Source: an uncultured Chlamydiales bacterium
GTDB taxonomy: Bacteria > Chlamydiota > Chlamydiia > Chlamydiales > JAAKFR01
Direction: 5' to 3'
Assembly: GCA_963832835.1 (NCBI GenBank)
Contig: CAWHVD010000001.1
Span: 1,899,429-1,963,428 of the forward strand
Length of the DNA: 64,000 bases
Shown: positions 6,451 through 43,182 of the stretch, piece by piece
Layout: each line of letters opens with the position of its first letter
Position numbering within the stretch: position 1 is the first letter of the stretch
The notes under the pieces: generated by a model
What the model was told of the DNA's origin: nothing
The model's database searches: none
The model's input: only the letters and a program-made list of their open reading frames with translations
Position numbers and translations under genes: made by a program

Positions 6451-6613
6451 TACCATTTTCAGAAAATAAAGCCATGAAGTGGCACTGTATAACACGCCAT
6501 TTTTGAACGATCCTTTCTCGCTTAGGTGCAAAAACATAGGCTTCGAAACAATCATCCCAATCTGTCATGTTACCCAGTGCCACTTCCTGGCTTTATTTTC
6601 TGGAAATGGTATA
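6450..6613. mobile_element. MITE copy 1 (~164 bp), IS630-type termini
   Basis: Begins taccattttcagaaaataaagccatgaagtggcac and ends gtgccacttcctggctttattttctggaaatggta. It has long terminal inverted repeats and TA at both flanks. It is the same element as at 40514, 53691, 55971 and 60897. Confidence 0.85.
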
Positions 6614-35181: not shown

Positions 35182-37281
35182 AACCCAAGTTCAGTGAGTT
35201 GCTCTCGAGAAAGGGAGCCGAAGTTTGTCGGATTTAACACTACAACTTGAAAATTCAAAGAATAACTTTTTTACTTTTTAAAATTTGTGTTGGTATCCCG
35301 AGAGACCTATAGACTCCTTTTTGATTTTCCTCTGCATTCGTTGTACTTCTATGATAGAGGATCTTGCCTTCTTTGGTTTTTGCTTGCATCGTCACACGTA
35401 CCCGTTTAGACAACCAATTACGGACTGTCTCCCAATTATGTGAAAGACCCTGTTTTCGGAGTTGATATAGGCAACTTTGAATCAAATGGTAAGCCAACAG
35501 GGTAATCCAAAGATGTCCATCTACTCGATGTTCTTTTTGATGATAAACCGGACGCATCCCTAAAGAGGATTTCATAAACCGAAAGGCATCCTCTACGGTG
35601 CGAAGGGTGTTGTAGAGATTCCATAATTCTTTGGGCGAGAGTTTGATCAGATTTGTTCGTAGAAAATAATAGCCATTTAGCCTCTCACTTAGCTTAGCCG
35701 ATTGCAGTTTCCAGGTAATGTGAAGAGCTGTAAGGCCATCGCTGGAAGGCTCCACGTGTATTTCGTAACATCCCGACACGTGACGATGTTTCTCCCTTAG
35801 CCTCCCTATCCTCTCTAATACTTTGATATATTTTTTTCTCCCCTTGGGCTTACCTAAGCCTTCATTGGCTTTTTTTAATTCCTCTTCAAACCGTTTCTGA
35901 AAGAGCTCTCTCATCTGGGTAGCAACTGCCAATTTGGCTTCAGACTCACAGTAAAGCCATTTCTCTTCTATTCCATCTTCTTGAATAAAGGCAGCTTTAA
36001 CGTTTTTCCCAAGATCCCCCACTTCATCCATGGATCCTTCTATTTCAAGAGAGGGGGCCTTTTGCCTAGCCGATACGATGTAGGTATAATGGTGGTCTCG
36101 CAACCATTTGAGATTCTCCTCTGTTGCAATACCGGCATCCAGGATAACTGTTGGTTTGAAAAGATCCTCAGGGTCGTGAAGCAGCTTTACGATCTGCTCT
36201 AGAGTGCTAGGTTCTGATATGTTTCCAGGAAAAAATGAGGAGCGTCTTGCAAAGCCATATTCATTGATCACGAGCCCTAGAGTGATCAGAGGAGAGTCGG
36301 TCCGTTTTTCTTTTGACCTACCATGCTTGGCTTTGGGGTTGCCTTTTGCCTGCCCTTCCATATAGGTATTGGTTAAATCGTACAGAATCATTGTACTTTG
36401 ATAGCCATGAACTTGCTGCTGAAATACCTCCAGGTGTCTTTCCAATTCTTCTTTGTGATCCAATAATCGGTCGCTGATTTGGTAGAGGTGATCAGAGGAT
36501 GTTTTTTGGAAATTGAAATCTATGAGCTCGCCAAGGCCACTGCTTTCCTCAAGCCACGCATGTGTCGCCCGTTCACTGGCTGGGAAGGTGGCCCTCCCAA
36601 TGATTGTACCGAGCGCTAAGGACGCTTCTCTTTCTGAAAAACCCATCTCCCGTAATTTTTTTGGTATTTGAAGTTGAGTTGCACAGTGCAATAGAACATG
36701 CTCCACCCCTACTGTTCGAGGTTCGCTCTGTTCTATTGTATGGACATCTATTGTTTGGTATTCCTCCTCCTCTTCGCCTTTCATTTCCTGTTTTGGTTGG
36801 TCAGACAGATGACGAAGGAGCTCAGAGGCATACTTTCTGGCCAGCCGTTCTATTCTTGCAGGATAGGACAGAAAAGAGTTAATCCCTGTGAGGATTTCTT
36901 CTATCCGGTTGGCTAGAAGCTTGCTCTCCTGTTTATCCAGTTCGAGATCGGCGCCGAGGTTGAGGAGAATGCGTTGTCTTGGTCCTCGTTCTGTTCGGAC
37001 CGATTCGATAAGCTGAAAATTGTAATATATTTTTTTTGTGTCAGGATGGGTGATGCGTGTTTTTCTGATAAACATGATGCGCAGTATACATCCCGCAGGA
37101 TTTTTCTGATATATAAATAATTATTTTATGAAAGATTTAGACACTACAAGACAATTGAAAATGCAATATATTGGTACTGAATTAGATAGAAAAAACAGGT
37201 TTATCAGAGATTTTTTAAATATGATTGATAATCAGCGTGTTACGCAGTTTTAAAGAAATTCATATAAAATGAACTTGGGTT
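35182..37281 (-). mobile_element. IS1634-family (IS4-like) insertion sequence, ~2.1 kb
   Basis: Terminal inverted repeats aacccaagttca (35182-35193) and tgaacttgggtt (37270-37281). A single 606-aa transposase ORF. AT-rich 5' leader. Flanked by long direct repeats. Confidence 0.75.
35255..37075 (-). CDS. IS1634-family DDE transposase
   Basis: 606 aa. The N-terminus MFIRKTRITHPDTKKIYYNFQLIESVRTERGPRQRILLNLG and the overall length match IS1634-type transposases as I recall them. Confidence 0.7.
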   Translation of the reverse strand: MFIRKTRITHPDTKKIYYNFQLIESVRTERGPRQRILLNLGADLELDKQESKLLANRIEEILTGINSFLSYPARIERLARKYASELLRHLSDQPKQEMKGEEEEEYQTIDVHTIEQSEPRTVGVEHVLLHCATQLQIPKKLREMGFSEREASLALGTIIGRATFPASERATHAWLEESSGLGELIDFNFQKTSSDHLYQISDRLLDHKEELERHLEVFQQQVHGYQSTMILYDLTNTYMEGQAKGNPKAKHGRSKEKRTDSPLITLGLVINEYGFARRSSFFPGNISEPSTLEQIVKLLHDPEDLFKPTVILDAGIATEENLKWLRDHHYTYIVSARQKAPSLEIEGSMDEVGDLGKNVKAAFIQEDGIEEKWLYCESEAKLAVATQMRELFQKRFEEELKKANEGLGKPKGRKKYIKVLERIGRLREKHRHVSGCYEIHVEPSSDGLTALHITWKLQSAKLSERLNGYYFLRTNLIKLSPKELWNLYNTLRTVEDAFRFMKSSLGMRPVYHQKEHRVDGHLWITLLAYHLIQSCLYQLRKQGLSHNWETVRNWLSKRVRVTMQAKTKEGKILYHRSTTNAEENQKGVYRSLGIPTQILKSKKVIL

Positions 37282-37351
37282 AGGCAATCTTAAACTTGAG
37301 AAAGGAAGGTCCCTCCCAAAAGGAAGGGTAATATGGCGGGAGGTGGATGTT
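37281..37351 (+). repeat. Right copy of the ~70-bp direct repeat flanking the IS1634-family element
   Basis: taggcaatcttaaacttgagaaaggaaggtccctcccaaaaggaagggtaatatggcgggaggtggatgtt; see 35111-35181. Confidence 0.8.
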
Positions 37352-37509
37352 AATCAATTTTCAGAGGTAGCATAGAGAATTCCTGAAACGCCACCGACTA
37401 ATACCCCTATGTTCTATAGAAAGTTGTAATACATCCTGTTCGCTCATCATCATTTCTTCCTCTCATTAAGTTTTCTCTGCATTTTATACTGGTCAGTTGC
37501 AAGAATTTT

Positions 37510-37839
37510 TTATTGTGGATCGACAAACGGCTCTTTGCGTGCATAGATTGTATATTTCTCTTTTGGGAGAGGATTAGGATAGTCGCACCGAATGACTTCA
37601 AAATCCGCTTCCGGATCGATGGGAAAATCAGCATGCACTTCTGTAGCAATGCATGAATAATGTTCTTCAATGACTGCACTAACCTCACCATGGTGATAAA
37701 ACATAATCCAAGCAATCTCGTCACCAGGTTCCCATTTTAAAATCACCTTACGTAGTGACGGTATGACTTCACCAAAAAGAGCCCTGGTAATGGAGAGTTC
37801 CAAACCTCTTACAATCACTATATCTTCTTGATTCAACAT
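37510..37839 (-). CDS. Candidate immunity protein (109 aa) for the upstream toxin-like domain
   Basis: Small acidic ORF whose ATG overlaps the stop of the toxin-like ORF by 1 nt (TAATG). Its size and position match a polymorphic-toxin immunity gene. No family recognised. Confidence 0.45.
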   Translation of the reverse strand: MLNQEDIVIVRGLELSITRALFGEVIPSLRKVILKWEPGDEIAWIMFYHHGEVSAVIEEHYSCIATEVHADFPIDPEADFEVIRCDYPNPLPKEKYTIYARKEPFVDPQ

Positions 37840-38198
37840 TATTTTTTTCTCCTGTCAAGCATTCTTTTCAATTTATTGGGATCAACCGGCACAACATGGT
37901 AACCTCCACTCATGTCATAATGGATATCTCCAATAGAAGTGAGCACGCGGGTTTTTGTATCTCGATCAACATGAATCCCAATGATTTCATCAAAAGCAAC
38001 CGTCTCTTTATATCCCGCTTCCCCGAAGGAAAACCGGGTAGGTACACCTTCGCCTAACTTGGGTTTCACTAATTCCTCTAGACGTTGTACTGAAATCGTT
38101 AATTCGCCTTTACCCGCACCTGCATCAAAGTTATTGGCTCCGGGGATATGCTTTTCTTGTTGCCCTAGATGCAGCTTGCGACGAAATGGACTGCCGAA
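37839..38198 (-). pseudogene. Polymorphic-toxin-like C-terminal domain (resembles 'toxin type 50'/Ntox50), out of frame with the upstream 530-aa ORF and lacking its own ATG
   Basis: The frame is open from 38198: FGSPFRRKLHLGQQEKHIPGANNFDAGAGKGELTISVQRLEELVKPKLGEGVPTRFSFGEAGYKETVAFDEIIGIHVDRDTKTRVLTSIGDIHYDMSGGYHVVPVDP. The ORF-track start (GTG at 38069) would remove the conserved QxKHIPG..NF head. Confidence 0.5.
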
Positions 38199-39757
38199 TC
38201 ACAACCCCCTTTGATACAACCTAAACCGACTCCAATTGAAAACACAAAATGCTGATAGTTTGGGTCATCTAAGAAAGTAGGGCGCATGTCGCTTGTGAGG
38301 TAATCAGACAGGGCACATTGTAAATTACCGGTCTCAAAATAGGCGACAGCCCGTTCAAAAAAGGCTTCTTTGTGTTGAGGGTCTTTTTGGATGGCTTTTG
38401 TAAGGGAAGTAATAGCTTCGTCATAGCAGAGCAGCTCATTTAAAAGCCTCCCTTCCTGAAGATAGAGGTCTGAAGTAAGAAATGATTGAAGATTGTTAGC
38501 TTCGGCATAAGCAATCCATTGTCTGATGTCATCGAACGACTCTAAAAAAGCTCCTGTGTGAAAGTGCAGCATTCCACGCTCATAGTAGATCTTGGGATGG
38601 GGATGTTTTTTAAGACATTTTGTATATTGCATTTGAAAGTAACGGATCATCTCATCTGTGGCTGCAAGAAGGTTTTGATGCACGATTTGATGCTCGGCAG
38701 ATGGCAAATTTGTAGAACTGAATTGATCGATAGCATGGAAAATTTGATAATATTGGGAATAAAAATAGGCATGAATAATCAGGCCTCGAGCAAATTCTGC
38801 GTTGATACTATAATTTAAATAAGGGCTGAATTTCTTGGCCTTCATTTCCTGTTTCAAGCTCGTGAAATCTGCAAGCCATTCCAAAACCAGGCTGGCCGTA
38901 AAGCTGATGTTGCTTGCCCAATTTAAGCAATGAGGCCAATAACAAGTGCAAGTTCGATTGGTATCGAGATAGCTTAAGAATTGTTCAAAAAAAGGAAAGT
39001 AAGTTTGGTAACTCCAATTGAAATATCCAGGAAAAATAGAGTGTTGCGTACAGAAATGCCACTGAGGGATTTTTTTTTTAAATGCCTTACAATATTTTCC
39101 AAAAGTATTGTGATGTTCAAGCTCTCCTACGTAGACTCTGTGCCATTCTCCTGCCTTTAGGCAAGAACATCGATATAGCATCAAACCATCACCTCCGGAC
39201 CATCCGCGGTATTGGCCATACCCAAGTGTTTCAGGGTGGTAGTAGTCTCTGATAATGGTATCACCACAAATTGTGCAATGTCCATGGTCGCACGTATCAT
39301 ATGCACTGGTATTTTTAGGAAAAAGGCGCCATTTTTCTCCGATACGCTCGATCAATGTGGTGTCGATCCAAGCCAGCGAATTTCCATCTCGCAGAAACTC
39401 TAACTCGAGATTGCCTTCGTCATCTGATTTCCAGCAGGAACACCCTTTTGGATCGTTGATCAGATGGTTGAGACAGAAATATGGCCACATTGTGTCATAA
39501 ATTTCAGGAATGAACTGACCATCATTAGGCCCTTCGGGTTCATAATTCTCAATTTTTTCCAGCCGTTGACATAATTGCGCATATTTTTTTGCGTACTTTT
39601 CTCCACTATTGAGTAAAAAATCGAGATTTTCAGATGATTTAAGTGGAGCTGGACAGCAAACCAATAGCAGGGGACAAATCCAGTTAAAAATATGATACAT
39701 GGCAAGTTGAAATGATTGTGAACAGGCCATTAAGATCTGCGAATTATTTTTTGTCAA
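38165..39757 (-). CDS. Cys/His/Trp-rich protein with C-terminal TPR-like repeats (530 aa); possible carrier of the downstream toxin domain
   Basis: N-terminus resembles a signal peptide (MYHIFNWICPLLLVCCPAPLKS; the ATG at 39730 or 39700 is more likely than the TTG at 39757). Many Cys/His/Trp residues. TPR-like segment YYERGMLHFHTGAF...EAITSLTKAIQKDPQHKEAFFERAVAYFETGN. The 3' end overlaps the toxin-domain frame by 34 nt. Confidence 0.6.
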   Translation of the reverse strand: MTKNNSQILMACSQSFQLAMYHIFNWICPLLLVCCPAPLKSSENLDFLLNSGEKYAKKYAQLCQRLEKIENYEPEGPNDGQFIPEIYDTMWPYFCLNHLINDPKGCSCWKSDDEGNLELEFLRDGNSLAWIDTTLIERIGEKWRLFPKNTSAYDTCDHGHCTICGDTIIRDYYHPETLGYGQYRGWSGGDGLMLYRCSCLKAGEWHRVYVGELEHHNTFGKYCKAFKKKIPQWHFCTQHSIFPGYFNWSYQTYFPFFEQFLSYLDTNRTCTCYWPHCLNWASNISFTASLVLEWLADFTSLKQEMKAKKFSPYLNYSINAEFARGLIIHAYFYSQYYQIFHAIDQFSSTNLPSAEHQIVHQNLLAATDEMIRYFQMQYTKCLKKHPHPKIYYERGMLHFHTGAFLESFDDIRQWIAYAEANNLQSFLTSDLYLQEGRLLNELLCYDEAITSLTKAIQKDPQHKEAFFERAVAYFETGNLQCALSDYLTSDMRPTFLDDPNYQHFVFSIGVGLGCIKGGCDSAVHFVASCI

Positions 39758-39894
39758 GCATGCAGCCTGGTGGCGGGTGCAATTTCACTCGATAGACTTT
39801 TGGCTGCTGAGAAGCGATATTCACAGACGTGATAAAAATCGAGAAGATAGGACCCTTGCTGTTTCTTACCTCATGGAATGCAGGGAGAGGATTG

Positions 39895-40383
39895 TTAGTT
39901 TTCGGAAGATATCTCTATAAGATCTGTCCAAAGGTAGTGGGTCCAGTCATCGAGGATTTCACCAGCGCGGATCAGTTCGGCTTTGAAGGCTAATATGCCT
40001 TCGCGGCACCAGTAATCTTGATTGATGAGCCGGTGGATTTTCCACCCTTTCCGCTTTTCTATGGGCATATTGAGGGTTTCTATTTCGCGGTTGCCATAAC
40101 GTACTTGTAGGCGCAGAAAGATAGGTTCGGAGCCCATCATGCAACTGCGCGGGAGATTCCAGCGCACAATGACTTGCTGGCCATAATAACACTCTCTGTT
40201 GGGATCTGGTGTGTTTACTCTCTCGGAGGCAAGATGCTGGGGATACAAGTATTCAGAGCGACACGTCACATACCGGCCCTGACACCCTCCTAAGAAATTG
40301 CCCAGAAAGATGAGAAAAAGACAATAGGTGGATTTTTTTACCGCTGAGGACGCAGAGAGATAAACAAAAATGGGGTGTTTCAA
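39895..40383 (-). CDS. Hypothetical lipoprotein (162 aa)
   Basis: Signal peptide with lipobox FLGG/C. No other motif recognised. Confidence 0.55.
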   Translation of the reverse strand: MKHPIFVYLSASSAVKKSTYCLFLIFLGNFLGGCQGRYVTCRSEYLYPQHLASERVNTPDPNRECYYGQQVIVRWNLPRSCMMGSEPIFLRLQVRYGNREIETLNMPIEKRKGWKIHRLINQDYWCREGILAFKAELIRAGEILDDWTHYLWTDLIEISSEN

Positions 40384-40513
40384 TTTAATTGAGTCCTAAT
40401 AGACTTGTCGCAGCCATACAGGCTGCAAGATATCAACTGTCCAGACCCAGGGCGTTGCCCTGGGCTATTGCAATCTCAGCCTTTCAGGCTGAATAAAAGC
40501 TTGTGCATACATA

Positions 40514-40677
40514 ATACCATTTCCAGAAAATAAAGTCACAAATTGACACTGTATAACACACCATTTTTGAACGATCCTTTCTCGCTTAGGTGCAAAAACA
40601 TAGGCTTCGAAACGATCATCCAAATCTGTCATGTTACCCAGTGCCACTTCATGGCTTTATTTTCTGGAAATGGTATA
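40514..40677. mobile_element. MITE copy 3 (164 bp, best-preserved reference copy)
   Basis: ataccatttccagaaaataaagtcacaaattgacactgtataacac...catgttacccagtgccacttcatggctttattttctggaaatggtata, with TA flanks. Confidence 0.88.
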
Positions 40678-40811
40678 ACTTCCATTCTGCAAAACCTTTC
40701 TTCAGCCCGGAGGGGGCCTACACCACCAATAAACAAAGACTTTTCAGGGCAGGCATCCTATGTATCATGATATCTCTTTGCACCTCTGCGTCTTTGCGTT
40801 TAAATCACTCA

Positions 40812-41234
40812 TCAAAAGAGAAGCAAAGCGAAAACGAAAGCAAACAGAGAGAAAGACTCCACAATCCCAATCGCTGCAAAGCATTTTCCGTAAATGGCCG
40901 GCTGTTTAGCAGAGGCCTGGATCCCGGTAGCGCAGCACTTGCCTTGCATGTAGGATGAGACGAGCAGGGCAAGGCCAACAGAAGCTCCTATACCGATCCC
41001 ACCGACTGCTGAAAGAGTCCCCTCTTTAATCGCACCATGCATCAAGAGCATTAAGATGAAACCATAAATCGCCTGGGAAGAGGGCATCGCCGACATCCCA
41101 ATCATTTTTCCATGCCCCTCATCAATGCGCGCCATCACAGCGTGAGAGGCCATTCCGGCCACCGCACATCCAATGGAACTACCCACCATGGCGAGTCCTA
41201 AAACAATGGCTGGGCCTATAACATCAATATCCAT
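40812..41234 (-). CDS. atpK: V-type ATPase proteolipid subunit K
   Basis: 140-aa Gly/Ala-rich hydrophobic protein. It is the last gene of the V-ATPase operon and has a membrane-embedded Glu (GIVESFSLFAF). Confidence 0.8.
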   Translation of the reverse strand: MDIDVIGPAIVLGLAMVGSSIGCAVAGMASHAVMARIDEGHGKMIGMSAMPSSQAIYGFILMLLMHGAIKEGTLSAVGGIGIGASVGLALLVSSYMQGKCCATGIQASAKQPAIYGKCFAAIGIVESFSLFAFVFALLLF

Positions 41235-41259
41235 TTCAATTCCTAACCTGTTTTTGGGT

Positions 41260-43182
41260 TTATTCCCTAAATTTCAACAAAGCGAGCGGGTTAAAGTGTT
41301 TACCCCCTCCCTCAAAGCTATAGTGATACCACTCAATAAAATTAAGACGCAAGCCGTGAATCACTCCTCCCATCAATGCGAGGGTAAAATTGAGAGTGTG
41401 GCCTACGAATATGATCAAGATGCCGAGCACCCATGGCAATTTGGAGGCTATGTTATTGAAGGTAGAAGCCATGATCATACCAGCAAGAGAGAGGGCATAG
41501 ATACGTAAATAGGACATCACATCGGCAAAGACTTGGACGACATGCATGGCTTCTGCCAGCCCTTTGAGGCGGTGCTGGATGAGGGCTAAAACCACAGCTA
41601 TACTCAAACCGCCAAAAACAAGATATTTTCCAATGATGGTCCCTTCCGCGTAGGGGACTAAAAAAACATAATGAATGAGTGAAACGGCTCCCAAAATAGA
41701 GGGGAAGTACAGGTAAGCACCCACAATGAAGATGGCCCACCCGATTCCGGACCAGTTTTTATTGGCATATCTGAGGAAACCTAGAAAAATATGGACAGCC
41801 CCTACAAAAATGGCAAGCTCCAGCAAGACGTTGCTTTGGAAGTTGCTGTAGATGACATATTTGTTCATCCCTTCTTGGTTGCGTGTTACCCCTTTGAGAA
41901 ACTGATCAGCAGTGGTTGCTTGTTTGAGCACAGGATATTCTTTAAGCAAATCGCTATAAGCGGGAGGCTTATCATGTAAAAAGTATTCGGCTTTGCGCTC
42001 CACCATCCAGTTAATGATAGAAATGCTGCGGATTTTATTTTCAGGGGCAAACTCGATGCCAAAAAAGGAGACAAGCAGAACACCCCAGATGATGCATCCA
42101 ATGGAAAGATAGGTAGACAAGAGAGTAAGGCGTCGGACAAAGCCCCCTTTTTTCTTACCATATTTGAAATAAAGCCATAAAGAAATCCCTAGTAGAATAA
42201 TACCATACCCGGCGTCAGCGATGATCATGGAGAAAAATAGAGCAAAGGCAAAAAAGACCCAAAGCGAGGGATCCCGGTCGGTTGTAGCAGGGGTATCGTA
42301 GATACCGATCAAATCTTCTCCCAATCTGCCTACTCCGGTATTTTCCAAATGGGTGGGGACTCGATCTTTGGGCTCAACTGCAATCTTGCTGACATAAAGG
42401 CCCAGCTCTTCTGCGAGGCGCTCAAGATCTTTAATTTTATTTTTAGGAATCCATCCTTCGACTGCGAATACATCACCTTCTAGCAATGGTTCGATGCTCT
42501 CCTTAGAATTCTCGAGATGATACTTATTTAGAGTGTTATATAAACCTTGCTTCAGCAGTTTTTTTTTGTGTGCCAATGAGGCTAATTCGGTTTCATACAT
42601 ATCAATCTGCAAATGGATCTGGGCAAGCTCCTGATTCAATTCTCCTAATGAACGGTGGATGACAATCTCAGTTAAACCATGATATGTAGTGGGCTCACAG
42701 TTGATCGCTAAAAAATAGTCGAGTCCATGTGCTTGGCGTATAAAAATCACTTCAGGGCGTTTTGTAGACTCTGTTTCTGTATTCATTTTACAGAAAAAAA
42801 ATTGGAATACCCGTTTGGAGTCCTGTTCTAGCTCTCGTAGCTGATCTAAAGAGAAATCGCCAAAGACCTCGATCCTTTCAATCTCTTTAGTGAGGATGCG
42901 CCTTTGCTCACGCAGCCGCTCCAGTTCGGCTTCCCGCTCTACGACATGGCGGGCCAATACGTGTGCAGAGCGGTAATCATCAGTAGGCTCTTGCTTGACA
43001 GGGACCATTTGACGCAATACGTGCAGTGCATCTATAAAATTCTGGACCTCAGGAGAAGTTTCTAAGGGAAGCGGCGTTTTGCGGATGAACTCGACAATAC
43101 CCATTTCCTGAATGCGCTTAAAGAAGGCATCACGCAGGAGCATGGGGCCTATGACAAGGTATTTAGTGACATCAATCCGCAT
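41260..43182 (-). CDS. atpI: V-type ATPase subunit I
   Basis: 640 aa. Soluble coiled-coil N-terminal half and polytopic C-terminal half, with the conserved-type motif LSYLRIYALSLAG. Operon position lies between D and K. Confidence 0.85.
   Translation of the reverse strand: MRIDVTKYLVIGPMLLRDAFFKRIQEMGIVEFIRKTPLPLETSPEVQNFIDALHVLRQMVPVKQEPTDDYRSAHVLARHVVEREAELERLREQRRILTKEIERIEVFGDFSLDQLRELEQDSKRVFQFFFCKMNTETESTKRPEVIFIRQAHGLDYFLAINCEPTTYHGLTEIVIHRSLGELNQELAQIHLQIDMYETELASLAHKKKLLKQGLYNTLNKYHLENSKESIEPLLEGDVFAVEGWIPKNKIKDLERLAEELGLYVSKIAVEPKDRVPTHLENTGVGRLGEDLIGIYDTPATTDRDPSLWVFFAFALFFSMIIADAGYGIILLGISLWLYFKYGKKKGGFVRRLTLLSTYLSIGCIIWGVLLVSFFGIEFAPENKIRSISIINWMVERKAEYFLHDKPPAYSDLLKEYPVLKQATTADQFLKGVTRNQEGMNKYVIYSNFQSNVLLELAIFVGAVHIFLGFLRYANKNWSGIGWAIFIVGAYLYFPSILGAVSLIHYVFLVPYAEGTIIGKYLVFGGLSIAVVLALIQHRLKGLAEAMHVVQVFADVMSYLRIYALSLAGMIMASTFNNIASKLPWVLGILIIFVGHTLNFTLALMGGVIHGLRLNFIEWYHYSFEGGGKHFNPLALLKFRE

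Follow-up and report, generated by a model that had tools for sequence, protein, structure and literature searches.

The stretch analyzed here is a 64,000-nucleotide (nt) part of contig CAWHVD010000001.1 of an uncultured Chlamydiales bacterium (hereafter the window, to which all positions refer). On its minus strand it carries what is very probably a polymorphic toxin that was freshly inactivated while its cognate immunity gene was retained; the bacterium is an environmental member of its order. An open reading frame (ORF) of 530 amino acids (aa; 39757–38165), an open frame encoding an Ntox50 toxin domain (38198–37839) and a 109-aa ORF (37839–37510) follow each other in this order, and about 230 nt separate the last of them from an insertion sequence (IS) of the IS1634 family. 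The toxin frame and the 530-aa ORF are two halves of one toxin gene, and the 109-aa protein is an intact MafI2-family immunity protein. As it stands, the pair in the window is not a working toxin-immunity pair, and the strain is most likely an immune non-producer. In the following, related DNA contigs or loci are labeled L, related proteins P and public metagenome runs X. The toxin locus consists of these features:

38165..39757, minus strand: 5′ part of the toxin gene; 530-aa ORF with a signal-peptide-like N-terminus (MYHIFNWICPLLLVCCPAPLKS), a Cys-rich alpha/beta domain and tetratricopeptide repeats (TPR; Pfam TPR matches).
38179..38180, minus strand: deletion junction; 421 nt are missing between both bases (blastn of L090 against the window).
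37839..38198, minus strand: Ntox50 domain (RNase of the MafB2-CT/YxiD-CTD type; PF15542), now in the −1 frame and without a usable start.
37510..37839, minus strand: MafI2-family immunity gene, 109 aa, intact (PF26541, precomputed; fold match to 8hhj_A).

The toxin frame is open from 38198 to a TAA at 37841–37839 (...FGSPFRRKLHLGQQEKHIPGANNF...IHYDMSGGYHVVPVDPNKLKRMLDRRKK) and its translation reads ...RRKLHLGQQEKHIPGANNF...IGDIHYDMSGGYHVVPVDPNKLKRMLDRRKK. Using hmmscan, it was matched to Ntox50 (PF15542) over model positions 2–92 of 92 with an E-value of 1.6e-16 and 61.3 bits (gathering cut-off 22.2 bits), which confirms over the full length of the family the Ntox50 identity proposed for 37839–38198 by an earlier reading of the letters alone (the sequence-only reading). 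Among PDB sequences, the domain was matched to the C-terminal domain (CTD) of YxiD from Bacillus subtilis (9v8i_B, E 3e-4) and to MafB2 from Neisseria meningitidis (8hhj_B, E 4.4e-4). A match to VopV in this search was rejected as a low-complexity repeat artefact of about 3 bits per stretch.

YxiD-CTD is a metal-dependent tRNase with H447, H521 and H528 in the active site and K446 and K524 in substrate binding; mutation of H447 abolishes the activity and K524 is needed for it (PMC12700104). MafB2-CT is an RNase-A-like ribonuclease with H335, H402 and H409 (PMC9970974). In the alignment to YxiD, the three catalytic histidines are kept in the motifs EKH, IHY and HVVP at the positions of K446/H447, H521 and H528, respectively. 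Ntox50 was described as a predicted RNase of the BECR (barnase-EndoU-colicin E5/D-RelE) fold with the motif H, S, K, T, H, K, HxVP (Zhang et al., 2012; PMC3482391). With respect to this BECR/RNase-A-like fold, the AlphaFold2 model of P0065, a related protein with a toxin domain nearly identical to that of the window, matched 9v8i_B with a target-normalised template-modelling (TM) score of 0.68 and 31% identity (Foldseek). The toxin domain is basic, with an isoelectric point (pI) of 8.73. By homology to these enzymes, an intact Ntox50 domain would cleave tRNA or other RNA via the three-histidine active site.

In the window, no ATG, GTG or TTG is found in the toxin frame upstream of GTG 38069. 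The only callable ORF is therefore 76 aa long (GTG 38069 to 37839), and its product lacks the first catalytic histidine (KH motif; equivalent of YxiD H447). A complete translatable Ntox50 domain is thus absent from the window genome, where the domain lies in the −1 frame with this 76-aa ORF as the sole one.

In related loci the two frames form one gene. L002 (609 aa), L003 (635 aa) and L005 (614 aa) each encode one long protein that has a signal-peptide-like N-terminus and ends in an Ntox50 domain, with TPR repeats in between, and a MafI2-type coding region follows. Using tblastn, residues 215–371 of the L005 protein were found at window positions 38656–38168 and residues 507–612 at 38183–37860 in another frame; residues 372–506 have no counterpart in the window. 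A search with the 530-aa ORF resulted in 47 homologues, most of them 680–760 aa long with a C-terminal Ntox50 domain, and with 85–97% query coverage including the Cys-rich part. Taken together, the toxin proteins of the relatives span 610–760 aa and consist of a signal peptide, a Cys-rich domain, TPR, a helical linker and Ntox50. Their N-termini resemble Sec signal peptides (e.g., MKKFILFLFSLCTSLSASS). The sequence-only reading had kept the toxin frame apart from the 530-aa Cys/TPR protein, a separation that does not hold, as both are halves of one gene in the relatives.

A related protein, P0065 (735 aa), shares a 90%-identity cluster with the 530-aa protein and is uninterrupted (...GGCDSAVHFV-PSLFNTIYGLGKG...(140 aa)...NEFKKQ-CKLHLGQQEKHIPG...). 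Its AlphaFold2 model, calculated from 26 sequences, reached a predicted local distance difference test score (pLDDT) of 80 and a predicted TM score (pTM) of 0.71. It comprises an N-terminal alpha/beta Cys-rich domain (about 40–230), a helical and TPR region up to about 480, a helical domain (498–624), which is the piece deleted in the window, and a small alpha+beta domain (625–735). The Foldseek search with the full-length model was dominated by TPR proteins and was uninformative on the Cys-rich domain and the linker. The intact toxin would accordingly be a protein of about 740 aa in which a Sec-type signal peptide is followed by a Cys-rich alpha/beta domain, TPR, a pre-toxin helical linker (about 140 aa) and, at the C-terminus, the Ntox50 RNase.

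The lesion in the window was located by comparison to L090, a 2699-bp Logan contig that encodes the intact 735-aa allele P0065 and is 96–98% identical to the window. Positions 34–1452 of L090 correspond to window 39598–38180 (95.7%, ungapped) and positions 1874–2646 to window 38179–37402 (97.8%; blastn), so that L090 1453–1873 (421 nt = 3 × 140 + 1) is missing from the window. With this deletion, residues 485–624 of P0065, which form the helical pre-toxin linker, are lost and the reading frame moves by one nt. The toxin frame is −1 relative to the 530-aa ORF, which stops at a premature TAG (38165–38167) within the toxin frame because of the frameshift at the junction. No microhomology was evident at the deletion ends.

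The intact junction was found in six public metagenome runs from soil, wetland, marine sediment, groundwater and sediment (X1, X2, X3, X5, X6 and X9). In all six, the match to the window breaks off exactly at 38180 and continues with ...CCCTCCCTTTTTAATACG..., which encodes PSLFNTIYGL; in X1, ...AAAAAGCAGT precedes 38179 and restores KKQC. Next to the junction, two of the runs (X2 and X6) match the window with an identity of 99% or more. JGI metagenome scans gave no match for the exact 24-mer of the intact junction, nor for the 530-aa protein. Since wild strains 96–99% identical to the window keep the whole gene, the lesion is recent.

That all six covering runs have the intact junction and none the deleted one could also be explained by an artefact of assembly or consensus, in which case the organism would carry an intact 740-aa toxin gene; the window seems to be drawn from a long single-contig assembly (2.585 Mb), which fits this explanation as well. 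It is nevertheless very unlikely. A clean loss of 421 nt is atypical of consensus errors, and the independent contig L091 (4690 bp) shares the identical junction and the same IS neighbor; it corresponds to window 39869–35183 at 99.87% identity, with 3 mismatches and 3 indels over 4690 bp. Furthermore, the runs with the intact junction differ from the window in the cassette flanks too, and thus represent other strains. The deletion is taken as real and recent, with only a marginal share left to artefact.

The alleles of the window and L090 differ in some further respects. At 38100–38125 the toxin-domain patch of the window is 6 nt longer than in the intact allele (NNFDAGAGKGELT compared to NNFREGRGELT), owing to three small indels that restore the frame; from there to the toxin stop both alleles are identical. 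For the scaffold, the ratio of non-synonymous to synonymous substitution rates (dN/dS) was 0.24 (dS 0.115). This dS was about four times that of the immunity gene (0.03), based on small numbers; a recent exchange or sweep affecting the toxin-immunity end of the locus would fit the difference.

As the entire Ntox50 frame is open and nearly identical to the intact allele beyond the 6-nt patch, a functional split of the gene was considered. In this case Ntox50 would be made alone, from CTG 38174, from GTG 38069 or by −1 ribosomal frameshifting in the 33-nt overlap, and would form a cytoplasmic toxin-antitoxin-like pair with the 109-aa protein, as implied by the toxin-immunity arrangement of the sequence-only reading. 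A GAGGA lies 4 nt ahead of GTG 38069, and the toxin gene of L087 is interrupted by a nonsense codon after which a separate 96-aa Ntox50 ORF starting with M-GKHIPG remains. On the other hand, no ATG, GTG or TTG lies upstream of the KH motif, the product from the GTG is devoid of the histidine whose mutation in YxiD (H447) abolishes activity, and in most of the full-length relatives examined both parts are fused into a single protein. Programmed −1 frameshifting was dismissed, since no slippery heptamer of the form X XXY YYZ was found between TGA 38199–38201 and TAG 38165–38167. Such a split is therefore regarded as highly improbable.

Inactivation of the toxin is the preferred reading. The 421-nt internal deletion has removed the linker and shifted the frame, and the gene would now yield a 530-aa scaffold protein without toxin. 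The Ntox50 domain would stay untranslated or would at most yield an inactive 76-aa fragment, and the immunity gene with its own ribosome binding site is intact.

The last A of the toxin TAA (37839) doubles as the first base of the ATG of the 109-aa ORF (TAATG), as the sequence-only reading had noted; likewise, the acidic character it had ascribed to this ORF is reflected in a pI of 4.68. An AGGAG is located 9 nt upstream of the ATG, so that translation of the immunity ORF is independent of the toxin frame. PF26541, named MafI2 in genomic-context records, is assigned by precomputed protein-database annotation to the 109-aa protein and to 13 relatives at 55–76% identity. The AlphaFold2 model of the protein (13 sequences; pLDDT 87.6, pTM 0.81) was compared to the PDB using Foldseek. 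The top match was MafI2 itself (8hhj_A) with an E-value of 4.2e-6, TM scores of 0.68/0.74 and 23% identity; it was the only PDB match at E<1e-3, the second one having an E-value of 1.6e-2. By homology, the immunity protein would attach to the basic face with which the toxin binds RNA and keep the substrate out.

Compared to the copy beside the intact toxin in L090, the immunity gene of the window differs in four bases and one residue (F24 for W). A MafI2-type gene lies downstream of an Ntox50 toxin in the window, L002, L003, L005, L087, L090 and L091. The linkage that the sequence-only reading had asked for was thus present at all related loci examined (L002, L003, L005, L087 and L090). The coding region adjoins the toxin directly in L002 and L005; in L003 it is found 107 nt downstream, fused to a toxin remnant. 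The earlier proposal of a toxin-immunity arrangement is borne out for the two families (Ntox50 and MafI2), whereas a working pair is not given due to the out-of-frame deletion of 421 nt. A search of PDB sequences with the single 109-aa sequence resulted in chance matches only. When GTDB species-representative genomes were scanned with the immunity profile, no match was confirmed, and the window's own genome was likewise not recovered.

Several observations weigh against the inactivated-toxin reading or parts of it. The position of YxiD K524 is a Met in the window as well as in the intact allele of L090. The K524-equivalent Lys is present in many Ntox50 family members (e.g., P0019 and L005), and the equivalent of K446 is present in the window. 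The local Pfam copy and NCBIfam gave no match for the 109-aa ORF, and a profile of 14 immunity sequences did not reach MafI2 among PDB sequences, so that MafI2 membership is based on the precomputed Pfam assignment and the fold. The deleted junction was found in no indexed public short-read run, and the deletion is seen in two assemblies only, possibly from one project. Activity, binding and expression of the family in chlamydiae are predictions from sequence, and export beyond the Sec-like signal peptide as well as the target cell are putative.

The N-terminal part of the toxin belongs to a rare family. Its Cys-rich domain was matched by 82 clusters out of 1.84 billion at E<=1e-3. For the 58 full-length scaffold proteins, the C-terminus was Ntox50 in 38 cases and an HNH/LHH DNase in one; the remaining 19 had no Pfam match, and a sample of seven proteins showed at least three additional sequence types among them. 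Homology of the aligned scaffolds extends to a [KR]AN..LT[LF]E motif situated some 35 residues ahead of the toxin domain, beyond which the sequences diverge. The divergent C-terminal types in this alignment are Ntox50, an "MPGKPHS...QQKPY" type, the HNH/LHH colicin-DNase (P0040) and two singletons. Since relatives bear other C-terminal domains, one of them an HNH DNase, the scaffold family is truly polymorphic. The scaffold itself (Cys-rich domain, TPR and helical linker) is undescribed, as far as literature could be found.

In P0039, P0043, P0049 and P0050, the C-terminal 120 aa (approximately) share the motif R[IV]MPGKPHS...QQKPY...EAHI and have no Pfam match; this is a candidate for an undescribed toxin domain. 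Apart from HNH/LHH, none of the alternative C-terminal domains could be identified by Pfam.

The small downstream gene changes together with the toxin domain. The HNH member (P0040) is followed by an unrelated 160-aa gene, and another Ntox50 subgroup by an unrelated family of about 232 aa without Pfam match (L088:6883-7578 and L089:7160-7861). The latter is probably a second immunity family for Ntox50. It is also found in the multi-immunity locus of L087 (L087:9272-9961), which carries two MafI2 genes, one gene of the 232-aa type and an IS3 transposase. In L003, a displaced Ntox50 remnant is fused to the MafI2 ORF.

Scaffold members with a named source are mostly from metagenome-assembled genomes (MAGs) of a "Chlamydiales / Chlamydiae bacterium" or from Verrucomicrobia MAGs, and the V-ATPase (vacuolar-type ATPase) A subunit of the window is 88% identical to its counterpart in an uncultured Chlamydiales MAG. 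Of the three readings offered by the sequence-only reading, decay is the right one for this copy. The acquisition it suggested is not supported: close wild strains have the intact gene, and the rare scaffold is mostly chlamydial or verrucomicrobial among the members with a named source.

Loss of the toxin was also found in two relatives. In L001 the toxin gene has two frameshifts and the MafI2 gene is intact, and in L087 an in-frame stop lies 18 codons ahead of the toxin domain and the MafI2 genes are intact. Because the lesions in the window, L001 and L087 are different, they represent three independent losses, with sequencing errors being possible in the latter two.

The pattern suggests that the system serves conflict between bacteria and not attack on the host, since immunity genes are present, L087 has additional ones, and they persist where the toxin is lost. 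The immunity protein would shield the producer and its kin. Alternatively, the intact toxins could be host-directed effector RNases, with immunity protecting only the producer before export. Secreted TPR-rich proteins are frequent among chlamydial effectors, and tRNA is conserved as a target across the domains of life. Furthermore, most toxin domains of intracellular bacteria were judged to be host-directed (Zhang et al., 2012; PMC3482391). A host target is less easily reconciled with dedicated immunity genes directly downstream of the toxins, with the extra orphan immunity genes of L087 and with an immunity that outlives the toxin in three independent lineages (window, L001 and L087). Retained immunity is expected if toxin-producing neighbors are a threat, and it is a criterion for intra-specific conflict (Zhang et al., 2012; PMC3482391). 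Host-directed action is consequently considered unlikely, though with a real share of the probability.

With regard to conflict between bacteria, it is conceivable, at somewhat short of even chances, that environmental chlamydiae possess their own small family of Sec-exported polymorphic toxins with interchangeable payloads for the antagonism of chlamydiae against chlamydiae or other endosymbionts in shared protist hosts. If true, the window would represent an arms race in action, in which the toxin was just lost and the immunity kept, with a position of the cassette relative to atpK that differs from sister strains. Little need for warfare among bacteria is usually ascribed to obligate intracellular bacteria, and most of their toxin domains are interpreted as effectors against the host. 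A complete toxin-immunity system with interchangeable tips and repeated toxin loss with immunity kept argues for toxin-producing neighbors. The near-identical intact and deleted alleles would provide a natural pair of producer and immune non-producer for competition inside amoebae.

The delivery considered in the sequence-only reading, contact-dependent inhibition (CDI) of the CdiA/CdiB type, was not supported. Pfam gives TPR and Ntox50 only; no CdiB transporter, FHA repeats or VENN motif of a type V secretion system were found, and no CdiB-like neighbor at the loci examined. Secretion-system genes in general were not consistently adjacent at these loci.

Downstream of the immunity gene, two further features were identified:

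35181..37281, minus strand: IS1634-family insertion sequence with transposase ORF 35255-37075 (NCBIfam transpos_IS1634).
37280..37364, no strand: 85-nt direct repeat; partner at 35111-35194, 89% identical (self-blast).

The ORF at 35255–37075 (minus strand) encodes an IS1634-family DDE transposase (NF033559, E 2.2e-80, 271 bits, cut-off 100). The ends of the element at about 35181–37281 were derived from the differing flanks of IS copies in metagenome contigs, and its distance of about 230 bp to the immunity stop agrees with the IS1634-family neighbor described before. The IS is a neighbor and not part of the toxin system. No convincing terminal inverted repeats were detected for the IS. It is bracketed by the 85-nt repeats (35111–35194 and 37280–37364), of which the left one overlaps the DAHP synthase gene at its 3′ end. 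These repeats may represent a long target-site duplication of old age, a feature known for IS1634.

In L090, X1 and one 704-nt contig of X3, the 3′ flank of the immunity gene runs straight into atpK (V-ATPase subunit K), which begins there at codon 18 and lacks the start codon. In the window, the cassette is located downstream of atpK and of a 162-aa ORF, and positions 37365–37409 look like a decayed remnant of that atpK piece (flanks compared: window 37402–37410 and 41127–41184; L090 2642–2699). The cassette or its flanks are rearranged between strains that are 96–99% identical. The 162-aa ORF (39895–40383, minus strand) between atpK and the toxin gene has a lipoprotein-like signal (…FLGGC) and no family match, and it is not linked to the toxin at other loci.

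A MITE-like (miniature inverted-repeat transposable element) repeat of about 165 nt is located at 40512–40676 and found in five copies in the window (also near 6539, 50561, 53730 and 56060). Its metagenome word depth of 1000–1700x, compared to about 5x in the flanks, suggests hundreds of copies per genome. The X3 strain is without the copy at 40512–40676. A shorter repeat is located at 39783–39862 of the window.

No further copies of the toxin or the immunity gene were found in the window, where the search returned generic TPR matches only. Over 37000–41300, Rfam gave nothing above threshold and one sub-threshold match, and a promoter and terminator scan was no better than shuffled sequence. 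For annotation, a single pseudogene should take the place of the 530-aa "TPR protein" and the 76-aa "Ntox50 protein", and the 109-aa ORF should be named MafI2-family immunity protein.

Polymorphic-toxin domains, Ntox50 and many others, have already been reported in chlamydiae, with Ntox50 recorded in other phyla too and without a known immunity family at that time, and intracellular bacteria were found to be rich in toxins and poor in immunity proteins (Zhang et al., 2012; PMC3482391). The view that such toxins are unexpected in an intracellular bacterium was therefore overstated, and the pair described here adds a member to those reported. Polymorphic-toxin domains in Protochlamydia were mentioned without further study (König et al., 2019). 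In the literature collection searched, no paper since 2013 was found that joins polymorphic toxin, Chlamydiae and immunity protein.

The pair is most similar in composition to MafB2-CT/MafI2 of N. meningitidis B16B6 (PDB 8HHJ; PMC9970974), with an Ntox50 toxin, an immunity protein of the MafI2 fold encoded directly downstream, and the combination of a basic toxin and an acidic immunity protein. In contrast, the N-terminus in the window is not MafB-N (DUF1020), there is neither a mafA nor a maf genomic island, the immunity proteins share 23% identity (structure alignment) and the toxin gene of the window is broken. The C-terminal domain of the LXG toxin YxiD from the YxiD-YxxD pair of B. subtilis 6633 (PDB 9V8I; PMC12700104) can be aligned over about 100 residues, with the equivalents of K446/H447, H521 and H528 kept, and metal-dependent tRNase activity would be expected by analogy. 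The window differs in the absence of the N-terminal LXG domain of the type VII secretion system, in the Met at the K524 position and in its MafI2-like immunity protein, for which no similarity to YxxD was seen.

The systems described by Zhang, de Souza, Anantharaman, Iyer and Aravind (2012; PMC3482391) share the constant N-terminal scaffold, the exchangeable toxin tips and the immunity gene directly downstream, as well as the displaced toxin remnants and extra immunity genes found in the relatives. The scaffold, in contrast, is outside their named trafficking modules (RHS, FHA/CdiA, LXG/WXG, MafB-N, PAAR and MuF). Finally, the locus resembles the orphan immunity genes of colicin, CDI and type VI secretion systems, as the toxin is dead and the immunity protein is intact, with only 1 aa changed relative to its counterpart next to the intact toxin. 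Unlike in those systems, the orphan is found here in an obligate intracellular lineage, and near-identical wild alleles place the lesion in the very recent past.

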